A DNA stretch of 64,000 nt from an uncultured Holophagales bacterium (lineage in GTDB: Bacteria; Acidobacteriota; Thermoanaerobaculia; Multivoradales; UBA5704). The stretch's first letter is position 1. Every line of letters begins with the position of its first letter. The stretch lies in the NCBI GenBank assembly GCA_963842525.1, contig CAWJGT010000003.1:1696001-1760000 (forward strand), given 5' to 3'. Of this stretch, positions 35,916-58,420 are shown piece by piece. The notes below the pieces were generated by a model. The model was not told the DNA's origin and did not search any database. It was given only the letters and a program-made list of their open reading frames with translations. The position numbers and the translations under genes were made by a program.

Positions 35916-38900
35916 TCAATCGATGGGGCAACCCAGGTTGTTGTCGCGGTCCAGATCCTCGGCCAGGTCGAGGATGCGGTTCCGGTCACGGCTTGCGAGG
36001 GCCGCATTCACGTCGCTGAGCACGCTCGCCACGCTGCGCGTGTAGGTGACCTCCGGGTGCGAGGCGTTGAGAAGGGCCGCGACGGCTTGCTTCAGCAGGT
36101 TGCCGGCCGCGCCGTTGAGGTCCGAGCCGCCGTTCGAGTAGAGCGCCTCGTGCAGGGTGTCCCAGGCGTGCTCCGAATATCCGGAGGCCGCGGAGAACAC
36201 GTCCTTCACCTTCTGGCTGGTCCGGTAGCCGGTGGACCCCCAGTCACTGGTGTGGTTCTTCCAGAAGCCATGCGAGCAGCCGTCGCAGGTCGGCTGGGGG
36301 GGCTTCTTGCCGTAGTAGTAGCTGGAGTCGTCGTCGCGGACCTGCGAGCCGCAGGGCGGATTCGCGGTGACCGTGGCGGTGTTCTTGTACTGCCCCTCCT
36401 TGGCGGTGCCGGTGAGGGTGCAGGTCATGGTCGCGCCGGGGGCCAGGCTGGTCGCCGGGCAGGTCACGACGCCTTCCTTGTCGTCGACCACCTTGATGCC
36501 GGAGAGGGCCACGTCGCCCTTGTTGGTGACGACGTAGGTCCAGGTCACCGGGGAGCCGACCGGGATCTCGGGGCCCGGGGCGCTGTGGGGCCGCACACCG
36601 TTGGTCCACTTGTCGATGTCGATGTCCGCACGGCTCTCGCCGAAGTAGAAGCTCATGTCGCTCGCGGTGACCGACTGGCCGCCGGGGGAGGTCGCGGTGA
36701 CCGTGCCCTTGTTGCTGTACTGGCAGGCGACGGCGACGCCGGTGCGCGAGCAGGTCATGGACTCGCCGGGCTGGAGGCTGGTCTTGGGGCAGCTCACCAG
36801 GCCTTCCTTGTCGTCGGTGACCACGATGCTGTCGAGGCGGACGTTGCCGGTGTTGGTGACCGCGTACCGCCAGGTCACCGGGCTGCCGACCTTGATGTTG
36901 CGGCCCGGGGCCCTGTCGCACCAGTTGTCGTTGGTGGTCTTGACGATCTTGATCTTCGGGTCTTCGGGCTTGTAGCCGAAGTAGTGGCTGGGGTCCTCGT
37001 CGCGCACCGTGGTGCCCTGGTAGGTGCCGGAGACCTTGCCGATGTTCTTGTACTGCCCTTCCTTGGCCGAGCCGTTGCCGGTGCAGCGCATGCTCTCGCC
37101 GGGCTGGAGGCTGGTCTTCGGGCAGCTCACGGACACGCCCTGGTCGTCGGTGACGCGGACGTCGGAGAGGGCGACGTCGCCGGTGTTGGTGACGAAGTAC
37201 TCCCAGAGGACCGGCTTGCCGACCTCGATGCGGGGACCGGTCGGGGCGTCGGCGTCGTCGCCGTTGGTGTGCTTCTCGATGTCGATCGCGACGTTGTTCC
37301 GGAAGCCGAAGTAGTGGCTGGGGTCCTCGTCGCGGACGGTCTGACCCCTGGGCGAGGTGCCCACGGCGGTGCCGACGTTGCGGTACTGCCCTTCCTTGGC
37401 CGAGCCGTTGCCGGTGCAGCGCATCTGCTCGTCGGGCTGGAGGCTGGTCTTCGGGCAGCTCACGGCCACGCCCTGGTCGTCGGTGACGCGGACATTGGAG
37501 AGGGCCGACTTGCCGGTGTTGGTGACGATGTACTCCCAGAGGACCGGCTTGCCGACCTCGATCCGCGGGCCGGTCGGGACGTTGGCGTCGTCGCCGTTGG
37601 TGAGCTTCTTGATGCTGATCTCCGGGCAGTCGCAGGTCTCGTCCTTGCCGAAGTAGTTGCTGGGGTCGGAGTCACGGACCGTCTTGCCCTTGGGCGAGGC
37701 GCCGGTGGCGGAGCCGATGTTGGTGTACTGGCCCTTGATCGCGGTGCCGTTGCCGGTGCAGCGTATCGTCTCGCCGATCTTGAGGGAGGTCTTGGGGCAG
37801 CTCACGGCCACGCCCTTGTCGTCGGTCACCCTGACGTTCGAAAGGTCGGTGTTGCCGGTGTTGGTGACGAAGTACTCCCAGAGGACCGGGCTGCCGACCA
37901 GGAGCTCGGGCCCCTTGGCCACGTCGGCGTCCTCGCCGTTGGTGTGCTTCTCGATGTCGATCGCCGGGCACTCAGGATCCGACCCGCCGAAGTAATTGCT
38001 GGGGTCCTGATCGCGGACGACCTCACCCTTGGGCGAGGTGCCGGTGACGGAGCCGAGGTTGGTGTACTGGCCTTCCCGGGCCGTGCCGCGGCCGGTGCAG
38101 GTCATGGACTCCTGGATCGCGAGGGTGGTCTTCGGGCAGGTCACGGCCACGCCCTTGTCGTCGGTCACCTTGATGCTTGCGAGGCTCGTATCGCCGATGT
38201 TCTTGACGATGTACTCCCAGAGGACCGGGCTGCCGACCAGGAGCCTGGGGCCGGGGGCGGCGTCGGCGTCCTCGCCGTTGGTGAGCTTCTCGATGTCGAT
38301 TCCCGGATGGTCCGGAGGCGGCGCGCCGGTGTAGTAGGCGGGATCGGTGTCCTTGACCTCGTTGCCGCAGGAGGTGGCGGCGCTGGCGGTGCCGACGTTC
38401 TTGTAGGCGCCGGAGATGGCCTTGCTCTGGGCGGTGCAGGTCATCGTCTCGCCGGGCCGCAGGGAGCCCCTGGGGCAGGTCACGGTGAGCGTCTTGTCGT
38501 CGTCGGTGACCTTGATGTTGTTGAGGGCCACGTCGCCCGTGTTGGTCACGAAGTAGGCCCAGTCGACCGTGTCGCCCAGCCTGACCTCGAGGCCCGGGGC
38601 GGTGTCGGCGTCGGCGCCGTTGACGAGCTTCTCGATGTCGAGCTCCGCGTTCTGGCCGCCGAAGTAGTGGCTCACGTCCTCGGCCTCGACGTCCAGGCCG
38701 TTCGGGGTCTTGCCGAACACGGTGCCGAGGTTCTTGTACTGGCAGGTCTGGGCGACGCCGCGGCCGGTGCAGGTCATGGACTCGCCGGGCTCGAGGGCGT
38801 CCTTCGGGCAGAGCACGTTCACGCCCTGGTCGTCCTCGACCTCGATCTCGGAGATCCGCACGCCGCCGTCGTTGGTCACGATGTAGTCCCACTGCACGGA

Positions 38901-39893
38901 GTCGCCGACCGGGATGGCCGGGCCGGGCGGGAAGTTGGCGTCCTCGCCGTTGGTCAGCTTCTTGAGCTTGAGGCCCGCGCCCGGGGTGATGGTGAACGGC
39001 AGGCAGTAGGACTGCAGAGCGATGCCGAAGCGGCTCTTCGAGCTGTGGTGGACGGCGATGGCGGAGAGCGCCTCGGTCTGGAAATCGAGCCATCCGGCCG
39101 GCTGCGTCAGGCCGAGGCTGGACACCGCCACGACCTGCATGGGCAGGAGCCGGAGCTGGTTGCTGCCGATCGCCTGACCGGCCTCGTTGTAGGCCTTCGC
39201 GCTGGCCGGGAGGACGGCCGTCCCGCCGGAGGTCTTCGAGGGCGTGCCCGCCAGGTCGGACCACACCACCACCTGGGTGCCGCCGTCAAAGGCGCCGCTC
39301 TGGAGGAACCGCAGGGCGTGCCGGTTGCACAGCCCGGGGCAGCCGACGTTCTGGTCGAGGTTGATCAGGGTGTCGCCCTCGCCGAAAGTCTTGGTGCCAT
39401 TGAGGATGAAGTAGTCGCCCCACAGCGCGGCGGGCGCAGGATCGCCCTGCGCCTTGATGCGGACATAGCCGACCGCGAGGTTGGGAGAAACCTGGGTCGA
39501 ATAGTAGAGCTTGTCCTTGGGCGAGGGCTGGCCTATCAGGACGGCCTTGAAGTGGTTTGCCTCGGCCTTGCTCAGCTTCCTGTCGGGGAGGGTGCCGGCC
39601 AGCCAGGGCCGCAGGTCGAACGAGCGGATCTGGTTGGGGGCCAGCGTCACGGTGCTCGTCGAGATGGCGATGCCCCAGTTGGTGTAGACCGTCACCGTTG
39701 CCTTGACGGGTGTGGTCTGGGCGTTGCCGATCGCGAACATGGTGGTGACGCCGGTGGTCGTCTGAAGGTCGACCTCGAAGTACGGCAGGAGCACTTCCGA
39801 GGAGGGCTTCTGCTGCGCTGCTGCCGGCTGCTGTCCAAGCAGCGCGGCAAACACCAGCGCCAGACAGATCTGCGTGTTCTTCCTTGTAGACAT
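35916..39893 (-). CDS. Large secreted repeat protein (DUF11/DUF7507-like Ig repeats, Cys-containing)
   Basis: Signal peptide; eight repeats IEK.TNG.DAD..PGP...VG.PV.W.Y.VTNTG...CPKTSL.PGE.M.C. Confidence 0.88.
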   Translation of the reverse strand: MSTRKNTQICLALVFAALLGQQPAAAQQKPSSEVLLPYFEVDLQTTTGVTTMFAIGNAQTTPVKATVTVYTNWGIAISTSTVTLAPNQIRSFDLRPWLAGTLPDRKLSKAEANHFKAVLIGQPSPKDKLYYSTQVSPNLAVGYVRIKAQGDPAPAALWGDYFILNGTKTFGEGDTLINLDQNVGCPGLCNRHALRFLQSGAFDGGTQVVVWSDLAGTPSKTSGGTAVLPASAKAYNEAGQAIGSNQLRLLPMQVVAVSSLGLTQPAGWLDFQTEALSAIAVHHSSKSRFGIALQSYCLPFTITPGAGLKLKKLTNGEDANFPPGPAIPVGDSVQWDYIVTNDGGVRISEIEVEDDQGVNVLCPKDALEPGESMTCTGRGVAQTCQYKNLGTVFGKTPNGLDVEAEDVSHYFGGQNAELDIEKLVNGADADTAPGLEVRLGDTVDWAYFVTNTGDVALNNIKVTDDDKTLTVTCPRGSLRPGETMTCTAQSKAISGAYKNVGTASAATSCGNEVKDTDPAYYTGAPPPDHPGIDIEKLTNGEDADAAPGPRLLVGSPVLWEYIVKNIGDTSLASIKVTDDKGVAVTCPKTTLAIQESMTCTGRGTAREGQYTNLGSVTGTSPKGEVVRDQDPSNYFGGSDPECPAIDIEKHTNGEDADVAKGPELLVGSPVLWEYFVTNTGNTDLSNVRVTDDKGVAVSCPKTSLKIGETIRCTGNGTAIKGQYTNIGSATGASPKGKTVRDSDPSNYFGKDETCDCPEISIKKLTNGDDANVPTGPRIEVGKPVLWEYIVTNTGKSALSNVRVTDDQGVAVSCPKTSLQPDEQMRCTGNGSAKEGQYRNVGTAVGTSPRGQTVRDEDPSHYFGFRNNVAIDIEKHTNGDDADAPTGPRIEVGKPVLWEYFVTNTGDVALSDVRVTDDQGVSVSCPKTSLQPGESMRCTGNGSAKEGQYKNIGKVSGTYQGTTVRDEDPSHYFGYKPEDPKIKIVKTTNDNWCDRAPGRNIKVGSPVTWRYAVTNTGNVRLDSIVVTDDKEGLVSCPKTSLQPGESMTCSRTGVAVACQYSNKGTVTATSPGGQSVTASDMSFYFGESRADIDIDKWTNGVRPHSAPGPEIPVGSPVTWTYVVTNKGDVALSGIKVVDDKEGVVTCPATSLAPGATMTCTLTGTAKEGQYKNTATVTANPPCGSQVRDDDSSYYYGKKPPQPTCDGCSHGFWKNHTSDWGSTGYRTSQKVKDVFSAASGYSEHAWDTLHEALYSNGGSDLNGAAGNLLKQAVAALLNASHPEVTYTRSVASVLSDVNAALASRDRNRILDLAEDLDRDNNLGCPID

Positions 39894-44239: not shown

Positions 44240-44630
44240 ACGCATCCAGAGTCACCTGGAATCGATTCAGGGTCACGCGGAATCGATTCAGAAAATTTGG
44301 AACCGATCCAGAAAATTTGGAACGCATCCCGAGTCACCCGGAATCGATCCAGAAAATTTGGAACGCGTCCCGAGTTTTCTGGAATCGATTCAGGGTCACG
44401 TGGAACCGATTCAGAAAATTTGGAATCGATCCAGAAAATTTGGAACGCGTCCCGGGTTTTCTGGAATCGATTCAGCCCAACCACAAAAAAAAAAGAGCGT
44501 CCCGAATTTTGGAATCGATTCAGGGTCACGCGGAACCGATTCAGAAAATTTGGAATCGATCCAGAAAATTTGGAACGCGTCGCGAGTTTCTTGAAATCGA
44601 TACAGCGTCATGCTGAATCGATTCAGAGTC
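44240..44630. repeat. 20/21-bp minisatellite (GGAAYCGATYCAG core)
   Basis: About 18 units with AAATTT, GTCACNN or GTTTTCT tails. Confidence 0.9.
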
Positions 44631-44682
44631 GTCTGAAGCCAACACAGGATCACGGGCGCAGGTTCCCGGATAGAATCCGCCC

Positions 44683-45267: not shown

Positions 45268-45274
45268 CCTCACG

Positions 45275-45770
45275 CAGCTCCAGTGTCCCGGTACGTTGCT
45301 TCATTGCCCCGGGGCAACGTGCCAGCGCCCCGGAGCAATGAGCCAGCGCAACTTCCGCGGCCCCAGTGCCCCGGTACGCCGCTCCATTGCCCCGGGGCAA
45401 TGATCCAGCGCCCCGGGACAACGTGCCAGCGCAATTTCCGCAGCTCCAGCGTCCTGGTACAGTGTTCCATTGCCCTGGGGCAGTGTTCCGGCGCCCCGGG
45501 ACAACGTGCCAGCGCAACTTCCGCAGCTCCAGCGTCCCGGTACGCTGCTCCATTGCCCCGGGGCAACGTGCCAGCGTCCCGGGGCAACGTGTCAGTGCAA
45601 CTTCCGCAGCCCCAGCGCCCCGGTACACTGCTCCATTGCCCCGGGGCAATGTTCCAGCGCCCCAGGGCAACGTGCCAGCGCAACTTCCGCAGCCCCAGTG
45701 CCCCGGTACACTGCTCCATTGCCCCGGGGCAACGTGCCAGCGCAACTTCCGCAGCTCCAGCGTCCCGCCC
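45275..45770. repeat. 20/21-bp minisatellite with ~62/83-bp higher-order period
   Basis: Units CCAGCGCAACTTCCGCAGCY, CCAGYGYCCCGGTACRCTGCT, CCATTGCCCCGGGGCAACGTG. Confidence 0.9.
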
Positions 45771-45790
45771 AGGTGTTTGCCGGCATCGAG

Positions 45791-49385
<3,595 letters not shown>

Positions 49386-49394
49386 CTCCACGAT

Positions 49395-49685
49395 TCAGAC
49401 GAGCAGGGGCTCGTCGAGGTCCGGCACGGCCTTCGTTCCATAGTGTTCGATCTTACCCTTCCAGCTCGATCCGAGATAGTAGACCCGCAGGCTGTCTTCC
49501 TTGTCGTTGATGATCCCCAGCAGGAGCAGCCGGAGCTGCGTCCATTGGGTTGGATCGACGATGCATTCGAAGACCGAGTTCTGGACGCGCTGGCCGAAAT
49601 CCAGGCAGGTCTTGGCGACCCGGCGCAGGCGCTTGCGCCCAGCCGGGGTCTTGGTGGAGACGTCGTAGCTGACGAGGACCATCAT
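49395..49685 (-). CDS. cas2: Cas2
   Basis: VLVSYDV...[20 protein letters not shown]. Confidence 0.97.
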
Positions 49686-49712: not shown

Positions 49713-50744
49713 TCATTTCCAGAAGAACGGCGGATAACCATCGAGATCTCCACGTAGGTGACGGGCAAGGAGGCATGCCTGGAGCCAGGGGATGAGGCCG
49801 ACTGTGGTTTTCTCGCCAAGGAACGGATGGACGATCTCTTCCTGCTTCCTCTTTTGATATGCCACGAGCACGGTCTTGCGGGTGTCCTTGTCCATGACCA
49901 CGCCGCCTGATTCTTCCTGCGAGAAGCCCGCCGCCCGGACCTGTTGCAGGTTGATGAGCGAGAGAGCGAGCCGGTCGGCAAGGAAGGTACGTAGGTCTTC
50001 CATGAGGTCGAGGGCGAGGCTTGCGCGCCCGGGCCGGTCGCGGTGCAGGAATCCGACGGCAGGGTCCAGGCCCACGGACTCCAGGGCTGCCTCGAGATCG
50101 TGGCGGAGAAGGGTATAGAGAAATCCAAGGAGGGAATTGACGTTGTCGAGGGGCGGCCTGCGGCTGCGCTCGCGAAAGAAAAAGCCCTCCTTCTGTTGCG
50201 TGATGAGATGGTCGAAAACCCCGAAGTAGGCACGGGCGGCAGCGCCTTCGATCCCGCGCAGAGCATCCAAGGGGACGCCTTCCTGGAGGCTGGAGAGGTG
50301 CTGGGAGAGAGCCACCGAGGCGGCTCGCAATGCCTCGCTTCCGGCGGATTCGGGCCGGTCCCGCAGAGCGCGCAGGATCACCGTCCGGCTATTGGCGATC
50401 TTCGCGGTAATGACGGTCCGGGCGAAGGCGGCAGAGGCGATGTCGTCGTCTGCCCGGCGGTACTGTTCGCGTCGCAGCAGGACGTTGCCCGAGACCGGGC
50501 CTTCGACCCGTGCCAGGAAACGGCCGTTCTCTGTGAGGAAGGAGACTGCGACGCCGCGTTCACCGCAGAAGCCCAGGAGGAATGGGCTGGCGCTGACCTG
50601 GCCGAAGCAGACGATGCTCCCGAGGGTATGGATGGGGACATGGAGCCGCGTTTCTTTTTCGATCCGCACGGCGACGGCCTCGCCGTCCTTGGCGAGGTAG
50701 GCGCCCTGGGTGGTGACATATAAAGTGTTCTGATGGCGTCTCAT
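49713..50744 (-). CDS. cas1: Cas1 (type I-C)
   Basis: NTLYVTTQGAYL, LRGIEG.AA..YF, RRPPLD.VN, SLALDLME. Confidence 0.97.
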   Translation of the reverse strand: MRRHQNTLYVTTQGAYLAKDGEAVAVRIEKETRLHVPIHTLGSIVCFGQVSASPFLLGFCGERGVAVSFLTENGRFLARVEGPVSGNVLLRREQYRRADDDIASAAFARTVITAKIANSRTVILRALRDRPESAGSEALRAASVALSQHLSSLQEGVPLDALRGIEGAAARAYFGVFDHLITQQKEGFFFRERSRRPPLDNVNSLLGFLYTLLRHDLEAALESVGLDPAVGFLHRDRPGRASLALDLMEDLRTFLADRLALSLINLQQVRAAGFSQEESGGVVMDKDTRKTVLVAYQKRKQEEIVHPFLGEKTTVGLIPWLQACLLARHLRGDLDGYPPFFWK

Positions 50745-51427
50745 GACGTTCCGTCTGCCTCCGATTGGAGAGCCATCTGCAGGGCTCGATCGAAATAGCG
50801 CAGCGCCGAGCCCTTGGGAGCGCCCGGCATGCAGACTTCGAGAAGGGAGCAGCGGTCGCACTTGGGCTCGCGAACGGGCTTGGGAGTCATGCCGGAGGCG
50901 ATCATTTGATGCAGGCGCACCGCCGTCTCTTCGGTCAGGCGCCGCAGCTCGGCGTCAAAGGTGATGTCTGTCCGGTGGCGGGTCTGTCCGTAGAAGAGGG
51001 CACCTGCCGGCACAGCGCTGCCGAGCATCTCCTCCAGGCAGAGACCCTGGGCACAGAGCTGGACTTCGTCGGCGCGGTGGCTCTTGGGCTTGCCCCGTTT
51101 GTATTCCACGGGAAAAGGTTGCCACGAGCCGGCCACGCCCGGCAGGGAAGCTCCCGGCGCGCCATCCGGCACGCGATGGAATTCGACCACGTCCGCCCGG
51201 CCGGAAAGCCCGAGGCGCAAACTGCGCAGTGGCAACCCGCGGGCGATCCGCAAATCACCGCGGGACTCCCTGAATCCGCTGTCCGCCTGCTCATGAAGAT
51301 GCCGGCCTTCGACCGTCAAAGGGTTTTCCACCCAGATCTGCTCCAGATGGATCAGCGCACACTGCCGTTCACAGAACAGCAGGTGTTGCAGCGCGGAGAC
51401 CGGGAGGAGGTCGTCTTCGGGGAACAT
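50741..51427 (-). CDS. cas4: Cas4
   Basis: LQHLLFCERQ, G.ADVVEF, PVEYKRG, QLCAQ..CLEEM, C..CSL..C. Confidence 0.96.
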   Translation of the reverse strand: MFPEDDLLPVSALQHLLFCERQCALIHLEQIWVENPLTVEGRHLHEQADSGFRESRGDLRIARGLPLRSLRLGLSGRADVVEFHRVPDGAPGASLPGVAGSWQPFPVEYKRGKPKSHRADEVQLCAQGLCLEEMLGSAVPAGALFYGQTRHRTDITFDAELRRLTEETAVRLHQMIASGMTPKPVREPKCDRCSLLEVCMPGAPKGSALRYFDRALQMALQSEADGTS

Positions 51428-51437
51428 GGGGTTATCC

Positions 51438-52361
51438 CTACAACTTTTCGTGCAGGGTCACTCCTGGCGGCAGTCCTTCCCGGTTGATCTGCACGTCGTA
51501 ATCGTCATAGACCCGTGCGGGCCTGGAGGAATCCTTCCTCGTGGCCGTGATGCGAGAGAAGAGTGCGTGGGCTGGCGCATTGCCCAGGAGGCTCTGGTGC
51601 TCGAACACGATCAGTTTGCGGGTTGCCATCTCGCCGCGGGTGGCGGAACGGTCGTGCTCGAACATGTTGAGGAGGGCCTGCCAGACGAGCTCGAGGTCTT
51701 CTTCCGTGAAGCCTGTATCGGCGGCGAGATGGGGTGATACGAATCCGTGGCCGCGGTAGAGCGCATAGGGTACGATCTCCTTCCGGCCCATGGTGCCGAC
51801 AACCTGGCCACTCTTTTCGATCTGGCTGTCCGCCTCACGCTGGGTTGCGACAGCCTTGCGAGTGATCGACTGCTCGAGAGTGGCGATGGGATCGACCGAG
51901 CGTGAAAAGGTGACCTGGACCGGCCCGCGGACCTGGCCGCAGTTGATGTCGAGAGTGAGAACTGCGCCGAAGGTGCGGATGTCAAAGTAGGTCTGGCACA
52001 TCCAGGCGCGGGCCTTCTCGACGTTGGACTGCCGCGTTTCCTTGGATTTTTCGTCGACGACGAGACCTTGGACCTCATAGGCCTGACGGTGGAGCTGTTC
52101 CAGGACGCCGTGCTGCTTGACGTAGATGTCGTAGCCAGGTGCTGGAGCACTGCCCTGGAGATCGGATTTCGCCAAGGTGATGAAGTTGCGGATCTTGCGC
52201 TTCAAGGAAACGTCGCTGATCAGCCCATGGCCGGTTTCTGGGTCGACGCGAGGCGCGTTGCCGGCATCGGGGTCGCCGTTGGGGTTGCCATTGGTCACGT
52301 CGAAGAGCAGGACGAAATCGTAACGATGGGCAATGGTAGGGATGGCGGTCGCGGTCGTCAT
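51438..52361 (-). CDS. cas7: Cas7 (Csd2, type I-C)
   Basis: NGNPNGDPDAGN.PR, FDIRTFGAV, GQVRGPVQ, MFEHDRSA. Confidence 0.97.
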   Translation of the reverse strand: MTTATAIPTIAHRYDFVLLFDVTNGNPNGDPDAGNAPRVDPETGHGLISDVSLKRKIRNFITLAKSDLQGSAPAPGYDIYVKQHGVLEQLHRQAYEVQGLVVDEKSKETRQSNVEKARAWMCQTYFDIRTFGAVLTLDINCGQVRGPVQVTFSRSVDPIATLEQSITRKAVATQREADSQIEKSGQVVGTMGRKEIVPYALYRGHGFVSPHLAADTGFTEEDLELVWQALLNMFEHDRSATRGEMATRKLIVFEHQSLLGNAPAHALFSRITATRKDSSRPARVYDDYDVQINREGLPPGVTLHEKL

Positions 52362-54214
52362 TGCGCGTTCTCCTGTTCGGCGCTCTGGGCGCGCCGAGCG
52401 CGTTCTTCATGGGGCAAAAAGAGCTCGTGACGCTGATGGTGGTACCCGAGCACAAAAAGGCCCTGCTGTTCGAGCGGCAGGAACGGTGGGAACGAGGTGA
52501 TCGCTTCCAGAATGGAATCGGCATCTCGTTCGAGGTCATGGGCACGCCGTGGCCTCTCGCCGTCCTTGGCCTTGCGGGCATGATGGCGAAAATTCTTGAG
52601 AAGCCTGGGGAAGACTGCCGCAGGAGTGGCGGACGCCGAGCTGAAAAAGCGATCCACGACGTTCGCATTGATGTCTTTGCCCAGGGCTTCTTCCTGCATG
52701 CGTTCGAGGACGGCCATGAGCCGGCCGAGGCGATAGCCGGTTTCGGTGTTGTTCGGATCCATGGCTTCGGTGACCTCCGGGTAAAGGGCTGCGGCCTGGC
52801 GGCTGCGGCGGCGGTTGAGGACGGCCTTGATCAAGGCGGCGCGAGCGTCGTTGCGTTCCCGGTCGCTCCACTCGGTGCGGCCGATCTCAGCGCGGGAACG
52901 CTCGAGGGCACGCTGAAGAACGGCGAAAGGATATGGCGTGCCGCCGAGCGCGGCAGCCACCACCTGCCCGGCCAGGGCGGCAGGCACTCCTTTATCGTCT
53001 CCCCTCGGTGCGAGAGAGCGCATCAGGACCCGGAAAGGAAGGGCCGGAGGAGGCTCCTTTCCTTTTACAGCCGGTGTGTTGCGGACGATGGCGAGGTCTT
53101 TGAAGTGCTTTGCGAGATGGTTTGCCACCCGTTGAACCGTCGACTCGAACCAATCGCGAAGGATGGCGCGGCCTTGAGAGCCAGAAAGGGTAAGAGCATA
53201 GAAAAGCGATGCGTCTTCAATTTCGAAAGGCTTGCCTCGCCACAGGGAACGATAGAGCTCACGCACCTGCTCAGGATTGGCTTCCAGAAGGCCGGCGAGC
53301 TGCGAGGCCAGGCCGTCGCCGGCGGGATTGGAAGCCCAGAAACAGACGGCGGTGTCCGCGCTCAAGCGCAGGAAACGCTGCGGTAAAGTCTGGCCCGGCT
53401 GGCGGGGATCCGGGAATGCGGGATGCAGCAGGCGGTTCAAGGCGGTCGAGCAGGCCTCGGCCGCCTCCCGTGAGATCGGCGCATTCTCGTTTCCGGACCA
53501 GCCGTAGGACTCGAAGGCGCTGCTGTTGAAGGAGACCAGGGCCACTCCGCTGGTGCTTCCTCCAGGCACGTTCTTGACACCTGGAAGCTTGTCGACCGGC
53601 AGGGCCGGACGCCCTGAAACGAGGCAGATCTGCCGTTCGCCTTCAGCCTCTTCCGCCGCCGCGCGCTGGCGGCGCCAGTATTCCCGGACTCTCGGGCGGG
53701 ACGTCACCAGGCAGTCGAGATCCTTGTGGTAGACAAATCCGAAAAGATCGTTGCTCACACAACCCTGCGGCAGGGCAACGACGATCTCTCCTTGCTGGAG
53801 CCTGGCCAGAAGGGCACAGACAGCGCCGGTGCCTTCGTCGCCGGTCGCGGCGAAACAGTCCTCGGCGCGGTCACGGAAGAGGGCGAGACGGGAGGCCAGC
53901 TTCTCGGCTGGCCGCTGCTTGGCGGGATCGGGTTCCGGATCGATGCCGAGGGCGTATTCGGCTTTGTCGTAAAGAAAGAAGGCACGGTCGCCACTCGTGC
54001 GCCCCGGCTCGCGGGGGACTGCGAAGCTCTTCGGACGGGGCTTCGGCTTCTTTTTCTTTTCCTCGGAGGTATCAATCGTGTGAGTGCCTTGGATGCCGAG
54101 CAGCGCACCACCGTCCCCTACGGTGATCAGCCAGGCCAGCGGCTTCCACTCATAGTCGGGATCTTCGACGAGGTGCTCGGTTTGAGCGAGTTCGTAGAGC
54201 GCCTGGAGGATCAA
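52358..54214 (-). CDS. cas8c: Cas8c (Csd1)
   Basis: ILQALYE start (TTG overlapping cas5 stop), CLVSG, LVSFN..AFESYG, GYRLGRL.AVLE..Q, F.LGYHHQ. Confidence 0.95.
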   Translation of the reverse strand: MILQALYELAQTEHLVEDPDYEWKPLAWLITVGDGGALLGIQGTHTIDTSEEKKKKPKPRPKSFAVPREPGRTSGDRAFFLYDKAEYALGIDPEPDPAKQRPAEKLASRLALFRDRAEDCFAATGDEGTGAVCALLARLQQGEIVVALPQGCVSNDLFGFVYHKDLDCLVTSRPRVREYWRRQRAAAEEAEGERQICLVSGRPALPVDKLPGVKNVPGGSTSGVALVSFNSSAFESYGWSGNENAPISREAAEACSTALNRLLHPAFPDPRQPGQTLPQRFLRLSADTAVCFWASNPAGDGLASQLAGLLEANPEQVRELYRSLWRGKPFEIEDASLFYALTLSGSQGRAILRDWFESTVQRVANHLAKHFKDLAIVRNTPAVKGKEPPPALPFRVLMRSLAPRGDDKGVPAALAGQVVAAALGGTPYPFAVLQRALERSRAEIGRTEWSDRERNDARAALIKAVLNRRRSRQAAALYPEVTEAMDPNNTETGYRLGRLMAVLERMQEEALGKDINANVVDRFFSSASATPAAVFPRLLKNFRHHARKAKDGERPRRAHDLERDADSILEAITSFPPFLPLEQQGLFVLGYHHQRHELFLPHEERARRAQSAEQENAQ

Positions 54215-54891
54215 GGGGCACCTCCGGCTGCGGCAGACTCCGTCTCGGGATGTTCCGGGATGTGAAGAGCGCCCCGCTCGAGCCGCGCGTTGAAAAAGAG
54301 AGGCCGATTGCGGCCGGAGTTGTACTCGATGTCCCACAACATCCACCCGAGATCGCGGCTGTCGTCGAAGGGCTGTGGAGCGTCGGCGGCCGGCAGGATG
54401 TCGGCAACGAATTCGCGGCAGCCGAAATAGGGCTGATGGAAGCTCTGTCCTTTCTCGACCCGGCGTGTGAAGATCTCCACGAACTTCGTCAGGTTGTCGA
54501 GAGGGCCGGCCCGGTCGGTCATCTCGCAACAGGCCTCCACTATATAGTCCACGTCCCGCAGAGCGAGGGTGTTGCGCTGGGCGCGGTCGCCGTCGGCGAA
54601 AAAGGGGACGACGATGCCACCGTCGCGGACGACGGCGGCTGCGGGTGCTACGGCTTTCGAGCTCACCTCATTGCGGCGAAAAGCGATGAAGCGGATCTCG
54701 CTGAGGACGAGGATACGTTCGACCCGCCAGCGGATCGCAGGTTTCCAAAGAACGGCCTCGAGAAGGCCGCGGGCGGCGGAAGGAGTCATCACCGGGTAGG
54801 AGACGCGCTCGACCTTGAGCTCCGGCCGGGTGAAACAGGCCAGCGGGCCGCGGGCGCGCAGGCGGAGAGTCGGGCTTCGAGATGCAGTCAT
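54211..54891 (-). CDS. cas5: Cas5 (Cas5d, type I-C processing nuclease)
   Basis: ACFTRPELKVERVSY.V.TPSAARG, PYFGCREF, DLGWML.D. Confidence 0.96.
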   Translation of the reverse strand: MTASRSPTLRLRARGPLACFTRPELKVERVSYPVMTPSAARGLLEAVLWKPAIRWRVERILVLSEIRFIAFRRNEVSSKAVAPAAAVVRDGGIVVPFFADGDRAQRNTLALRDVDYIVEACCEMTDRAGPLDNLTKFVEIFTRRVEKGQSFHQPYFGCREFVADILPAADAPQPFDDSRDLGWMLWDIEYNSGRNRPLFFNARLERGALHIPEHPETESAAAGGAP

Positions 54892-54922
54892 CACGTCCTC
54901 CTGGGACATTGAAGGAGACCGC

Positions 54923-57128
54923 TCAGACGACCAGGCGCGCAGGATCAGGCTGCGGGTCATCGTCGGCCACCAGACCGAAGTCGAGGTCGTACAGACCATG
55001 GAAAGCCGCAGAGAGGACCAGGACACCGTCGGCGACCTCTTCGAGCGCGTCTGCCTCTTTCAGGTTTGACACGTCCTTCGGGAAAATGTTGACCACAAAC
55101 GGCTGCAAAGCGCGCAGCCGCAGACGGTCGGGTCCGAGGCGGCGGAGAGACGCCAACCGCTCCTCGGCCTCGCCATAGGGAACGACGACCGGCACCGAGG
55201 CGTCCTCGATGAGACGCAGCTTGCGGGCGACAGAGGCGAAGCTCAGGCCCTGGCGAAGGGGCTGGATCCCCTTGGGGTCGAGATCGCAAAGGAGATAGAG
55301 ACGCCGGAAAAAAGCCTCATAAGTGCCGAGATCGTCGAGATCGATGTCACCCTCCAGGAGCATCGACTCGACGACCGCGAGGCCCTTTTCCGGGATCCCA
55401 GGAGGTGGCGGCGTCTCCGCCCGGAAGAAGACGACCTTTCCCACAGCCAACCGGCCTTCGCGATTGCACCGGCCGGCTGCCTGAACCAGGCTGTCGATAC
55501 CCCCCAGGCAGCGATAGACCACGGGAAAATCGACGTCGACACCGGCCTCGATGAGCTGCGTCGAGACCAGCCGGCACGGGAAGCTCCGCATGGAGACGCG
55601 CCCTGATGTTGGCCAGCTTCGCCGAACGATGGGCCGGACACATGAGAGCCGACAAGTGAAACCGGTCTTCCGCAGGCAGAGCCTGGGCCAGCGCGCGCGC
55701 GTCACGGCGCCGGTGGACGATCGCCAGGACACGCTCGTGGCGACCGAGCTCCTCCGCCAACCTGGCATACGGAAGGACGGCTGGAGCAGCGTCCGGCCAC
55801 GTGAAGTGGACCCGCTTGAGATCCTGGACCAGCGATTTAGGATCGGGGGCGATCTCATGGACTGCTTCGAGCCCTTGGGGAAGGCTCTCCCTCCTGGTGA
55901 GCGCCGGTTGGGTCGCCGTCGTGAGCACGACCGTACAACCATAGTAATCGACCAGCTCTTTGAGGATCTCGAGAACCACGAGGAGGTAGTCCTCGGGCAA
56001 GGTCTGAGCCTCGTCGAGAAGGATGACGCTACGCGTGATGTTGTGCAGCTTGCGACAGCGCGACGGCGAGGCCGCAAACAGGGATTCGAAGAGCTGGACG
56101 TTGGTAGTGACGATGACCGGTGCGTCCCAGTTTTCCGCGGCCAACCGGCGGCGGATCTCGGCCTCGCGGTTCCGCTCCTCGGCGGCGAGCGGATCGAGCC
56201 CCGAATGGTGCTCGATCACGTTGGCCTCGCCCAGAGCGCGGCGGTAGACGGCTGCATTCTGCTCGATGATGCTGGTGAACGGGATGGCGACGATCACCCG
56301 CCGGAGCCCGTGCCGCTCGGCGTGACGCAGGGCGAAGGACATGGCCGCGAGGGTCTTGCCGCCGCCGGTAGGCACGGTGAGGCTGAGCACACCCGGCGAG
56401 AGCTCGGCCTTCTCGCGACAGGCCGCAAGCACCTCGGCACGGCGAACGTTGATGGGCGAAGACCGCAGCTCCTCGGGCACGCCTGCCGCAAGGCTGTCCA
56501 CATGATCGTCCAGGCGTAGCCGCAGCGTTGGGAGATCAGCCCATCCGGCGACGGCGGCCTGGCGCAAACCTGGCGAGTAGAAGTCCTCCGTCGCCAGGTA
56601 GTCTGCGTCGACCAGGCTGGAGAAGAGGAAGCGGATCCAGACCTCGAAGCTCCCCAGGCCGGCTCGCTGAAGGCGCTCCGGGAGACGGGGGAGGCTCGGA
56701 GAGGTGAGCTGCTCGGGAAGCGCGGGGCGAAGAGAATCAAGGATCGGACGGTTGACCTTGAGCCGTTCCTGGAGAGGAGAAGGGCCGCCCTCTTCGGAGG
56801 CCGTCAGGTTTGCCAGTCCGGCATGGTGGCCGGCGATGGCAAAGGCGAGCGGAAGACCGGCGATCCTGTCCTTGGCGTAAGCCAGTGCCGCTCCGGCACC
56901 GGAGTGCTCCACGGATTCACCGCTTCCACGCAAGCGACGCTGGAATTCGGGCAGGTACTTCCCCAGGTCATGCCACAGCCCAGCAAGCCGGCCCCACTCA
57001 GCGGCCTCGAAGGCGGCAGCGAAGTCTTCCGCGAGGCGGGAGACCTTCAGCAGATGGGCCTCGAGCTCTTCCCATTCCGAATCGGGGCGGCCTGCAAGGG
57101 TGTGGGCGAAGAGCTTGGAGTTGCTCAT
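54923..57128 (-). CDS. cas3: Cas3 HD nuclease-helicase (apparent +1 frameshift at 55580-55586)
   Basis: LWHDLGK, GHHAGL, PTGGGKT, ILLDEAQ, VSTQLIEAGVDVDF, QAAGRCNREG. Confidence 0.93.
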
Positions 57129-57151: not shown

Positions 57152-57769
57152 TCAACGCCAGTCTTGGGGACGCTCCAGAATGATCCCGTTCGGCTTGATC
57201 ACGTGGTCAGGCATCTGGCTTGCCGCCAGTTTACGACGGCCAATCGTGAAGTACGCGTGGGCGGCTTGTTGCAGGAGCCGAGAGCTTCGTCGCGGAGGAA
57301 ACGCTACGATGATTCGTTTACCGGGAATACCCCTGAGCTTGAGGAGAGCCGGCGCTAGGTCTCCATCCCCCGATACAAGAATTGCTTCGTCGAAGGTGTT
57401 TTGAAAGCCGTCTACCAGGATCTCTGTTGCAATATTTACGTCGGTCATTTTCTCATTTGGCACAAGGCACTCAAACCCACACTTCGAACACCGCCGAAGC
57501 TCATCCTGATACTGACCAAAATGCAGCGAGCAACGGTCGCCACCCTCTATAGCCTCCAGGAATACCTTCTGTTGAAGCCACTTGGAGCCGGGCCCCGAAA
57601 GGCGGGCAGTGAAGTACTTGACACCAACCAGCACCTGCCCATCTCTCAGAAGATTCTTGAGCAGAAGAACGGGGTCCAGCCAAAGAAACCGATCCCAGCC
57701 TCGTGTGCGAAGCCCAAAGTAGAAGTTGAAACCGTCGAGATAGCCCATGACCCTTTCAGCCACACTCAT
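57152..57769 (-). CDS. NYN (LabA/DUF88, PIN-fold) nuclease with CxxC insert
   Basis: YLDGFNFY, KYFTA, EKMTDVNIA, LVSGDGD, IIVAFPP. Confidence 0.9.
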   Translation of the reverse strand: MSVAERVMGYLDGFNFYFGLRTRGWDRFLWLDPVLLLKNLLRDGQVLVGVKYFTARLSGPGSKWLQQKVFLEAIEGGDRCSLHFGQYQDELRRCSKCGFECLVPNEKMTDVNIATEILVDGFQNTFDEAILVSGDGDLAPALLKLRGIPGKRIIVAFPPRRSSRLLQQAAHAYFTIGRRKLAASQMPDHVIKPNGIILERPQDWR

Positions 57770-57781
57770 TCCTTTCGCCGC

Positions 57782-57882
57782 TTGACGAAGGCGGCTCTCG
57801 TGGGGTATAAGTTCGCTTGAACACCCCCGGCGGTAGCACCGCCGGACCGACAGCCCCTGGAAACGGGGGCTGTTTCTTTTTC
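57782..57882 (+). ncRNA. Putative ~65-nt antisense sRNA with own promoter and terminator
   Basis: TTGACG-N18-TATAAG, hairpin CCGGCGGT-AGC-ACCGCCGG, then ACAGCCCC/GGGGCTGT stem with T-rich tail. Confidence 0.5.
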
Positions 57883-58099
57883 TGCCCTCCAGAGATTCAG
57901 TGTAGCGCTTTTCTGGTCCCGTGCACCCTCCATGGAGGCCTCTTCTAGTTCTAGCACTTCTACCACGAAGTGTAGAATACTACCATGGTGCGCCAGGATG
58001 GTCTCAATGCCCCATTAGGGCAGGTCAAGTCAAGCGACGGGTGAGCTGAGCTCGCTCACCGCCGGCTTGTGTAATCCTACCCACCCTGGGCGCCGGTTT

Positions 58100-58195
58100 G
58101 TTCGCTTCTGTCTCGTACAGGGCGTGGGTTGAAACGTGGTTGACGTACTCCGCAAGAGGGGAAGGAGGAGCGGTTCGCCCGCTCCTCCTGGTTTC
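58100..58195 (+). ncRNA. Putative crRNA-like regulatory RNA (solitary degenerate I-C repeat, short guide, hairpin)
   Basis: GGGCGTGGGTTGAAAC is 15/16 identical to the repeat 3' end; stem retained; guide matches 57966-57953 behind TTC. Confidence 0.65.
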
Positions 58196-58297
58196 TGCTG
58201 CGGCTCGCGGGCTCGGCGCTACCGCCCGCTGATCTACCAGGCCGCAGGGTAAGTTTCCTGCCGAGGGGCGCAAGCTCAGAAGGACGTGGAGGAAGGT

Positions 58298-58390
58298 GCC
58301 GCCGCCCCGCTGGGGCTTGGGGTCGATTGGGGGCCGCAGACCCAGGGCTGACGCCCTGGGCTACACGCCGTGGCCCCCTCCGGGGGCTCA
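58298..58390. repeat. REP-like hairpin cluster (CCCAGGGCTGACGCCCTGGG)
   Basis: Resembles the element at 20835-21019. Confidence 0.5.
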
Positions 58391-58420
58391 AAGCATTTCT
58401 CACTCGCTCCGTCCTCCAGC

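Follow-up and report, generated by a model that had tools for sequence, protein, structure and literature searches.

Autorepression of cas genes by CreR RNAs has been shown for CRISPR-Cas systems of types I-B, I-E and V-A, and creA-like elements have been noted and predicted for type I-C systems in the main text of the same study (Liu et al. 2023, bioRxiv 10.1101/2023.03.10.532045). A V-A CreR is described as being built of a single degenerate repeat (psi-repeat) followed by a terminator. A second form of regulation is known from the CRISPR-supervised immune systems (CRISIS) of type I-C, where RNAs resembling CRISPR RNAs (crRNAs) were demonstrated experimentally to repress embedded defence genes; according to the main text, these crRNA-like RNAs are 49-50 nucleotides (nt) long, carry an 11-nt 5' handle, end in a 3' hairpin loop and contain guides mismatched at the flipped-out positions 6 and 12 (Shu et al. 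2024, bioRxiv 10.1101/2024.12.27.630466). I-C loci are also known to be targeted by phage mimics. The window analysed here, the whole 64-kb stretch of contig CAWJGT010000003.1 from an uncultured Holophagales bacterium, carries a type I-C CRISPR-Cas locus on the minus strand at its right end. The inferred operon of this locus is headed by a gene for an NYN-domain protein (HEC-09) that precedes cas3, and upstream of it, on the opposite strand, lies a solitary crRNA-like element (58100-58199, plus strand). This element is probably a CreR-type crRNA-like RNA gene of the adjacent I-C system which represses the operon promoter.

The psi-repeat of the element (58100-58135) is located 331 nt upstream of the operon's first gene, is divergent from the cas operon and was delimited by alignment to the repeat of the CRISPR array, which ends in ...GTGGATTGAAAC when read on the minus strand. 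The last 16 nt of the two repeats agree at 15 positions, and the 11-nt handle predicted at the 5' end of the mature RNA, TGGGTTGAAAC (58125-58135), differs from that of the array at a single position; cleavage by Cas5c is predicted between 58124 and 58125. Outside of the array, the match to the 3' end of the repeat is unique in the window, with nothing else within two mismatches, and the only other matches in the genome are a mini-array of two repeats on another contig (C34) and one 14/16 chance match inside a gene. A hairpin of 4 bp, a 1-nt bulge, 4 bp and a 5-nt loop is predicted from the fold of the 34 nt preceding the handle, and ends exactly at the base before it. The handle is followed by a 27-nt guide, or pseudo-spacer (58136-58162), of which only the first 14 nt match the target, and by a GC-rich, terminator-like hairpin of 11 bp (58163-58189) with a T-rich tail reaching to 58199. 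This hairpin, which begins exactly 27 nt after the handle, may double as a substitute for the 3' repeat hairpin, giving a predicted crRNA-like RNA of about 51 nt (11 + 27 + about 13 nt). The degenerate repeat with its handle and the 11-bp hairpin closing the RNA after 27 nt, both named in the original prediction made from the letters of this DNA, were recovered on re-examination.

The target of the guide is a protospacer-like site at 57966-57953 on the minus strand, directly behind a TTC protospacer adjacent motif (PAM; 57969-57967), so that site and motif together span 57953-57969. It is placed 159 nt from the handle and, on the coding strand, 184 nt upstream of the ATG of the NYN gene. The TTC motif is accepted as the I-C PAM from Shu et al. 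and from general knowledge, rather than from the spacers of this array. As originally predicted, 11 of the first 14 guide positions match the target, with mismatches at positions 6, 9 and 12; counted over the 12 positions at which a type I complex pairs, the match is 11. Beyond guide position 14 the matches are scattered, and overall 12 of the 27 positions match. No other TTC-flanked site on either strand of the window reaches 11/12, the next-best TTN-flanked site between cas3 and the handle in this genome scores 7, and within the 330-nt intergenic region, which holds 14 TTC sites, a score of 11/12 was attained by only seven out of 200,000 shuffled guides.

The strongest evidence is provided by related genomes. 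When the N-terminus of Cas3 was searched against 92 genomes of this family, 29 yielded a match, and the upstream regions of the ten loci encoding a Cas3 at least 46% identical were examined. In seven of these ten, namely this genome (G000), its congener (G002), G009, G067, G077, G006 and G065, an element divergent from cas3 is present, consisting of a solitary handle ending in ...GGATTGAAAC or ...GGGTTGAAAC, a guide and a GC-rich hairpin. The distance between handle and hairpin, as read from the predicted folds, is 26-28 nt in all seven. Among the remaining three loci, the contig of G005 ends 44 nt upstream of cas3, and G090 and G083 have lost by deletion both the crRNA-like element and a portion of the hicA-like gene next to it; a TTC-flanked, target-like site is still retained in G090. 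The guides of the seven genomes fall into five unrelated sequence families, and the best TTN-flanked site for each guide within its own cas3-to-handle region matches at 11 (G000, G067 and G065) or 10 (G002, G009, G077 and G006) of 12 positions, with a TTC PAM in six loci and TTT in G077. The second-best site in the same region scores at most 7 and non-homologous pairs of guide and region at most 8 of 12. Within the guide family shared by G009, G067 and G006, positions 2, 5 and 9 differ between G009 and G006 in guide and target alike. Covariation of guide and target in homologous loci, which had been named beforehand as a test, is thus observed in all seven element-bearing loci. Guide position 6 is mismatched in all seven, the target base always being A, and position 12 in six; this is the pattern expected for flipped-out bases, as noted by Shu et al. 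for the I-C crRNA-like RNAs. Among 20 more distant cas3 loci (L191-L210), a search for solitary handles with the expression G[AG]TTGAAAC, which would miss variant handles, returned nothing besides the regular array in L208.

The position of the target also varies. In G009, G067, G077 and G006 it is found on the crRNA-like strand, flanked by a TAnnnT box and by the start codon of cas3. Its PAM is only 2-11 nt away from this ATG, and Cascade bound there must therefore cover the cas3 start region. In the genome of the window and its congener the opposite strand carries the target, at 7-8 nt downstream of TAGTAT and TAGCAT, respectively, the latter box being preceded at 17 nt by a perfect TTGACA. 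The NYN gene is absent from five of the six relatives that carry the element. Since these five have the target at their putative cas3 promoter region, the element is considered to be primarily a Cas autoregulator and not specific to NYN. The original prediction had described a solitary crRNA-like RNA aimed at the promoter of the NYN gene; the TTC PAM and the seed-only pairing at a putative operon-heading promoter region hold, while the specificity for NYN does not.

The promoter of the NYN-cas operon was placed at 57977-58007 on the minus strand by sequence reading and by analogy with the congener (TTGACA-N17-TAGCAT-N8-TTC). It would comprise a -35 box TTGAGA (58007-58002), a 19-nt spacer and TGG followed by the -10 box TAGTAT (57982-57977), the latter 7 nt upstream of the PAM; the motifs are weak. 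The -10 box proposed earlier, TATTCT (minus strand, 57979-57974), does occur 7 nt before the target, but the overlapping TAGTAT is the likelier box when compared with the congener. On the plus strand, a candidate divergent -10 box for the crRNA-like gene, TAGAAT (57973-57978), overlaps the minus-strand TAGTAT, so that -10-like hexamers overlap on opposite strands at 57973-57982. Comparable overlaps are seen in G002, G009, G067, G006 and G077: a second, opposite-strand TAnnnT overlaps the -10-like box in at least five of the six loci with a visible box, G065 having no clear box. This arrangement suggests that one bidirectional promoter serves both cas3 and the crRNA-like gene, in which case the crRNA-like RNA may also limit its own synthesis.

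On this basis a mechanism can be proposed. The crRNA-like gene would be transcribed divergently from the cas operon, and Cas5c would cut the transcript at the base of the psi-repeat hairpin (58124/58125) to leave the 11-nt handle. The 27-nt guide and its 3' hairpin would then be loaded into Cascade (Cas5c/Cas8c/Cas7), which would recognise the TTC PAM at 57969-57967 and pair over only ~14 nt, too short a stretch to license Cas3. Positioned just downstream of the operon -10 box, Cascade would repress the operon and exert a negative feedback on Cas synthesis. Titration of Cascade by crRNAs, or its blockage by an anti-CRISPR, would ease the repression, and Cas levels would in this manner be tuned to the crRNA load. 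The features of CreR that can be read from sequence are present in the element, namely a handle-bearing degenerate repeat, adjacency to cas, a guide with partial, PAM-proximal complementarity to a TTC-flanked site and covariation of guide and target; the -10-like boxes near the target, here and in relatives, suggest that this site adjoins the cas promoter, and, as described for CreR and creA-like RNAs in the main texts consulted, relief by competing crRNAs or anti-CRISPRs would be expected. The locus differs from these described cases in that the promoter would also drive a non-cas nuclease gene and in that the element is divergent from cas3. Five independent pairs of guide and target provide comparative evidence for CreR-type autorepression in the I-C systems of a soil Acidobacteriota-like family, a form of regulation which in I-C has previously only been predicted in the main texts consulted.

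The likeness to CRISIS, as far as the main text of Shu et al. describes these systems, extends to the I-C subtype, the solitary repeat unit, the 11-nt handle, the 3' hairpin, a target that precedes non-cas cargo, the PAM (TTC/TTA), mismatches at positions 6, 12 and the PAM-distal end, and the idea that an anti-CRISPR de-represses the cargo. In CRISIS, however, the cargo is inserted between cas3 and cas5c and the repeat unit comes after it, on the strand of the cargo and before cas5c; here the cargo is found upstream of cas3, and the repeat unit is divergent and upstream of the cargo. Transcription starts 37-46 bp downstream of the target in CRISIS, while here the target is just downstream of the inferred -10 box, and a single promoter appears to serve both the cargo and the whole cas operon. 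Classification of the locus as CRISIS was therefore rejected on two defining placement features, the position of the cargo and the position and orientation of the repeat unit, the TTC-flanked target preceding the cargo being shared. Neither 'NYN' nor 'PIN' occurs in the main text of Shu et al., and NYN/HEC-09 is not among the systems named there. The literature searches agree with the earlier statement that no characterised I-C/NYN example is known, no characterised pairing of a crRNA-like RNA with NYN having been found in the main texts searched. The novelty of the I-C case as such did not withstand comparison, as I-C creA-like elements had been predicted in 2023 and I-C crRNA-like RNAs that repress embedded defence genes were characterised in 2024.

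The NYN protein (205 amino acids; 57152-57769, minus strand) matches the Pfam NYN domain (PF01936; E 5e-12, 46.9 bits against a cut-off of 24.2) and the PADLOC HEC-09 model PDLC04163 from position 2 to 203 of 203 (E 4e-72); no NCBIfam model matches it. An alignment of 163 relatives has 49 columns with at least 95% conservation; the protein retains 47 of them, including D12, D110, D135, D137, C94 and C97, of which the four aspartates are conserved acidic residues of catalytic type. HEC-09 was described as an NYN/MARF1-like candidate embedded in Hma defence systems, which provided no protection against the coliphages used in the sole published assay (Payne et al. 2024, bioRxiv 10.1101/2024.01.29.577857, main text). 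The protein of the window resembles it in its end-to-end model match, its NYN/MARF1-like nature and its location within another defence system. It differs in that the copies in the main text of Payne et al. reside in Hma systems, while here the gene heads an I-C operon and is accompanied by a conserved small RNA; the terms 'CRISPR', 'ncRNA' and 'non-coding' do not occur in that main text.

Relatives of the NYN protein number 321 in a genome collection and at least 471 in a metagenome collection, in records labelled as Bacteroidota, Ignavibacteriota, Dehalococcoidia, deltaproteobacterial groups, Calditrichota and others. The retrieved loci include records labelled Flavobacterium gillisiae, Mucilaginibacter arboris and Lacibacter sp. 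Among the 160 loci formed by the best 80 of each collection (L021-L180), none has a match to the Cas3, Cas5, Cas7 or Cas8 of the window within flanks of 2.5-3 kb (E ≤ 1e-5, at which divergent Cas proteins could be missed), and a conserved third gene was not found beside NYN, the largest cluster of neighbours being present in only seven of the 160 loci. Because Cas matches are lacking nearby and no neighbour family exceeds 7/160, the NYN gene is read as a self-contained mobile unit which would have landed between a CreR-controlled promoter and cas3 in this genome and its congener, a later insertion behind a promoter that was by this reading already regulated. A covariance-model search revealed a second, independent association in G097 (L218/L209, ~1-2700 of the merged stretch), where a frameshifted HEC-09 gene and its small RNA precede, by ~230 nt, a cas3 of another lineage (with 36% identity to the Cas3 N-terminus of the window); no psi-repeat was seen on inspection of that locus by eye.

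A conserved, structured small RNA of ~62 nt is encoded at 57820-57881 on the plus strand, antisense to the segment that separates the target from the NYN start; it went unmentioned in the original prediction. It comprises a first hairpin (stem 57827-57833 with 57839-57845), a linker, a terminator hairpin (57849-57874) and a T-run, and coincides with the only part of the intergenic region conserved by BLAST (57817-57881), which is 84-89% identical in four relatives whose NYN proteins are just 48-56% identical. Homologous elements of ~60-70 nt are found upstream of NYN in 154 of the 160 loci, in all 154 divergent from it and at a median of ~49 nt from the first codon. Of the six misses, three are cut by a contig end and three come from a single lineage, on two distinct contigs. 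Aligned, 136 distinct copies display a hairpin with a conserved loop, a conserved linker, a terminator hairpin and a T-run. Of the cells in the 15 named base pairs, 98.0% are paired, a share that drops to 28-45% once the partners are shifted by 1-3 columns; 13 of the 15 pairs change on both sides, and none of 500 shuffles reaches any of the five measures. G-U pairs are frequent, one pair having 47 of them and another 34, and are compatible with the strand opposite NYN only. A covariance model (R1) finds a single copy in this genome (66.2 bits, E 2e-13), and copies in nine of the 92 family genomes, eight of which have it beside NYN.

By sequence reading, the promoter of the small RNA is placed at 57782-57811 on the plus strand (TTGACG at 57782-57787, an 18-nt spacer and TATAAG at 57806-57811), at a position where G002, G022 and G024 have TTGACA/TAnnnT; a strict scan was negative. 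Across the records the upstream box varies with the labelled phylum, being mostly TTGACA/TAnnnT and TAnnTTTG in those labelled Bacteroidota, and such phylum-matched boxes point to an independently transcribed small RNA. Against Rfam 15, the best match in the window is sX12 at 25.8 bits (threshold 106), nothing was found at the small-RNA site in 19 loci searched whole, and the best match in one NYN locus (L025) is DUF3800-I at 18.7 bits (threshold 44.2). An HEC-09-associated small RNA is not described in the main texts searched, and this RNA is the part of the locus that looks new, adding a candidate RNA family absent from Rfam 15. It may act on the NYN leader as an antisense regulator, or bind the nuclease as its inhibitor or partner, a protein partner being somewhat favoured by the selection on both fold and single-stranded sequences across phyla. 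For the widespread HEC-09, which displayed no phenotype when tested, the presence of the small RNA in 154 of 160 loci is a reason to re-examine it as an RNA-protein pair.

In the genome of the window and its congener, a two-part mobile module of the NYN gene and its divergent ~62-nt small RNA would thus have been inserted between the promoter and cas3. The NYN stop codon is 23 nt from the cas3 ATG (57128) and a terminator scan returned no minus-strand terminator between the target and NYN; NYN must therefore be part of any transcript running from the regulated promoter into cas3, and is probably co-transcribed with cas3 and hence under the same Cascade control. As NYN is located between target and cas3, with no minus-strand terminator intervening, the balance tips slightly towards an NYN mRNA that follows this control. 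The transcript from the regulated promoter would run antisense through the small-RNA gene, and it may be speculated that de-repression could raise NYN mRNA while disturbing the synthesis of its RNA partner. The locus shows that a candidate defence gene of foreign origin can be placed between a putatively regulated promoter and cas3, whereby Cas autoregulation and 'CRISPR supervision' would be merged in one promoter.

Several observations weigh against a CreR-type autoregulator that also controls NYN. The mismatch at guide position 9 is inside the seed, the same 6/9/12 pattern recurring in G067, and further seed mismatches are present at positions 8 and 7 in G065 and G077, respectively. The psi-repeat hairpin, which the original prediction held to be kept by compensatory changes, is plausible in that the fold abuts the handle, but at -6.4 kcal/mol it is no better than shuffled sequences (mean -7.9), and the fold of the whole 116-nt region gives z = -0.66; the hairpin of G077 misses the handle by 1 nt, and G006 has none adjoining it. 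The target in G065, at 28 nt from the handle and ~370 nt from cas3, misfits simple occlusion of a promoter, and a strict sigma-70 consensus scan of 57600-58400 called no promoter on either strand. The guide resembles GC-rich coding sequence, and among the 251,365 TTC sites of the 9.95-Mb genome seven score 11/12, including the target, leaving six equal candidates at which off-target binding of Cascade is possible. Match quality was accordingly rejected as sufficient evidence in itself, and the weight of the guide/target evidence derives from the proximity of the target and the covariation across genomes, not from uniqueness of the match. There is also an apparent frameshift in cas3 (HD and helicase domains; 54929-57128), with Pfam matches in two frames: near 55584-55588 the reading changes from frame -2, which holds residues 4-515 of the 740-residue Cas3 of the congener, to frame -3, which holds residues 518-739 (tblastn), and no long homopolymer occurs there. 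It may reflect a real step of decay into a pseudogene or an assembly error, and the system is possibly decaying, though Cascade looks intact; regulation by Cascade would survive the frameshift, interference would not. Finally, NYN may be transcribed from a separate promoter near its start, and an opposite-strand small-RNA gene intervenes between the target and NYN, so that Cascade control of NYN is less certain than that of the upstream promoter.

The equal genomic sites, the unremarkable hairpin energy and the apparently broken cas3 would all fit an element left over from the end of an array and decaying, or a sponge resembling the viral Racr decoys, with a merely fortuitous match at the promoter. 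This is highly improbable: five unrelated guide families match their own promoter region behind the right PAM, unrelated pairs reaching at most 8/12, and the guide length is held at 26-28 nt. The element shares with Racrs, as described in the main texts consulted, the form of a solitary repeat-like RNA expected to bind Cas proteins, but it is chromosomal rather than viral, is found beside cas3 in seven related chromosomes and has a conserved, covarying DNA target, which disfavours the decoy that the original prediction had put forward as an alternative. A different division of roles would keep the crRNA-like RNA as a genuine Cas autoregulator and leave NYN outside its control, expressed from a promoter beside its own start codon, with the regulated transcript mattering only for cas3 and the effectors. 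In 154 of the 160 stand-alone loci the gap between NYN and the 5' end of the small RNA is short (median ~49 nt) and the surroundings vary, which indicates that NYN brings its own expression signals, and five of six element-bearing relatives lack NYN. Such a separation is nonetheless unlikely, given that no other promoter is visible for cas3 in this genome or its congener, that NYN ends 23 nt before cas3 and that no minus-strand terminator separates it from the target.

The position of NYN directly behind the regulated promoter, its conserved acidic residues of catalytic type and the original discovery of HEC-09 embedded in defence systems also allow for an addiction module, the emphasis of the original prediction, in which an NYN RNase toxin is silenced by the crRNA-like RNA and Cascade and kills or arrests cells upon loss of Cascade or anti-CRISPR attack. 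CreTA and the CRISPR-supervised systems of Shu et al. have established this concept, as far as their main texts describe them, and in CreTA too a degenerate crRNA guides Cascade to repress a potentially harmful gene beside cas; the classical CreT, however, is a small toxic RNA, whereas here the product would be a 205-residue protein of putative toxicity with an RNA partner of its own. Addiction is a possible, if doubtful, explanation, as the element pre-dates NYN and is retained without it in five of six relatives, the main text of Payne et al. reports neither toxicity of HEC-09 nor defence against the phages tested, the small RNA may already neutralise or regulate NYN, and G097 has a frameshifted NYN beside another cas3 lineage where no psi-repeat was seen by eye. 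A rather unlikely elaboration holds that HEC-09 is a two-component module, whose small RNA serves as inhibitor or antitoxin, or as sensor or substrate, and which was captured behind the CreR promoter. Loss of Cascade, for instance by an anti-CRISPR, would then raise NYN mRNA while convergent transcription lowers its RNA partner, forming a two-layer anti-anti-CRISPR trigger. An autoregulator of the CreR type, with NYN inserted later behind its promoter, remains the preferred reading.

Downstream of the crRNA-like gene, a remnant of a hicB-like gene is present at 58217-58252 on the plus strand, comprising the last 11 codons (…RYRPLIYQAAG) and a stop codon; it was recognised by tblastn with the HicB-like protein of G009 (E 9e-5, 600-nt subject). 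In relatives (L184, L185, L186 and L187) an intact hicA-hicB-like pair directly follows the crRNA-like gene. Further downstream, at 58341-58388 (plus strand), the sequence matches the Rfam family Acido-Lenti-1 below its threshold (29.9 bits against a gathering score of 37, E 0.0002 in a 1.6-kb search), and a sequence judged by eye to resemble this region is found downstream of hicAB in G067.

The remaining cas genes are all encoded on the minus strand, their coordinates being mechanical limits of open reading frames whose true starts are possibly further in. They comprise cas5c (54211-55026; Pfam Cas_Cas5d, 1-213 of 217), cas8c (52358-54529; Cas_Csd1, 3-559 of 559), cas7 (51438-52361; Cas_Cas7, 1-249 of 249), cas4 (50741-51427) and cas1 (49713-50861; Cas1, 1-283 of 283). 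The Pfam matches of Cas5c, Cas8c, Cas7 and Cas1 are near full length, and that of Cas4 is partial (67-159 of 160). The CRISPR array (45790-49393, minus strand) contains ~55 repeats. Its repeat beside cas2 (49362-49403) is degenerate at the 5' end and begins ~8 nt after the cas2 stop codon, a gap too short for a leader on this transcribed side. At the far end of the array are repeat blocks with a 21/41-nt periodicity and five tandem repeats of 83 nt (44244-44651 and 45273-45826). A further repetitive stretch, at 36309-38981, consists of 7-8 tandem copies of a unit of ~330-340 nt with 64-85% identity and resembles a repetitive coding region. The mini-array on C34 (~745140-745290, plus strand) is an orphan distant from the cas locus, with two near-perfect I-C repeats in which the last 16 nt are perfect, two full-length spacers and a degenerate third repeat.

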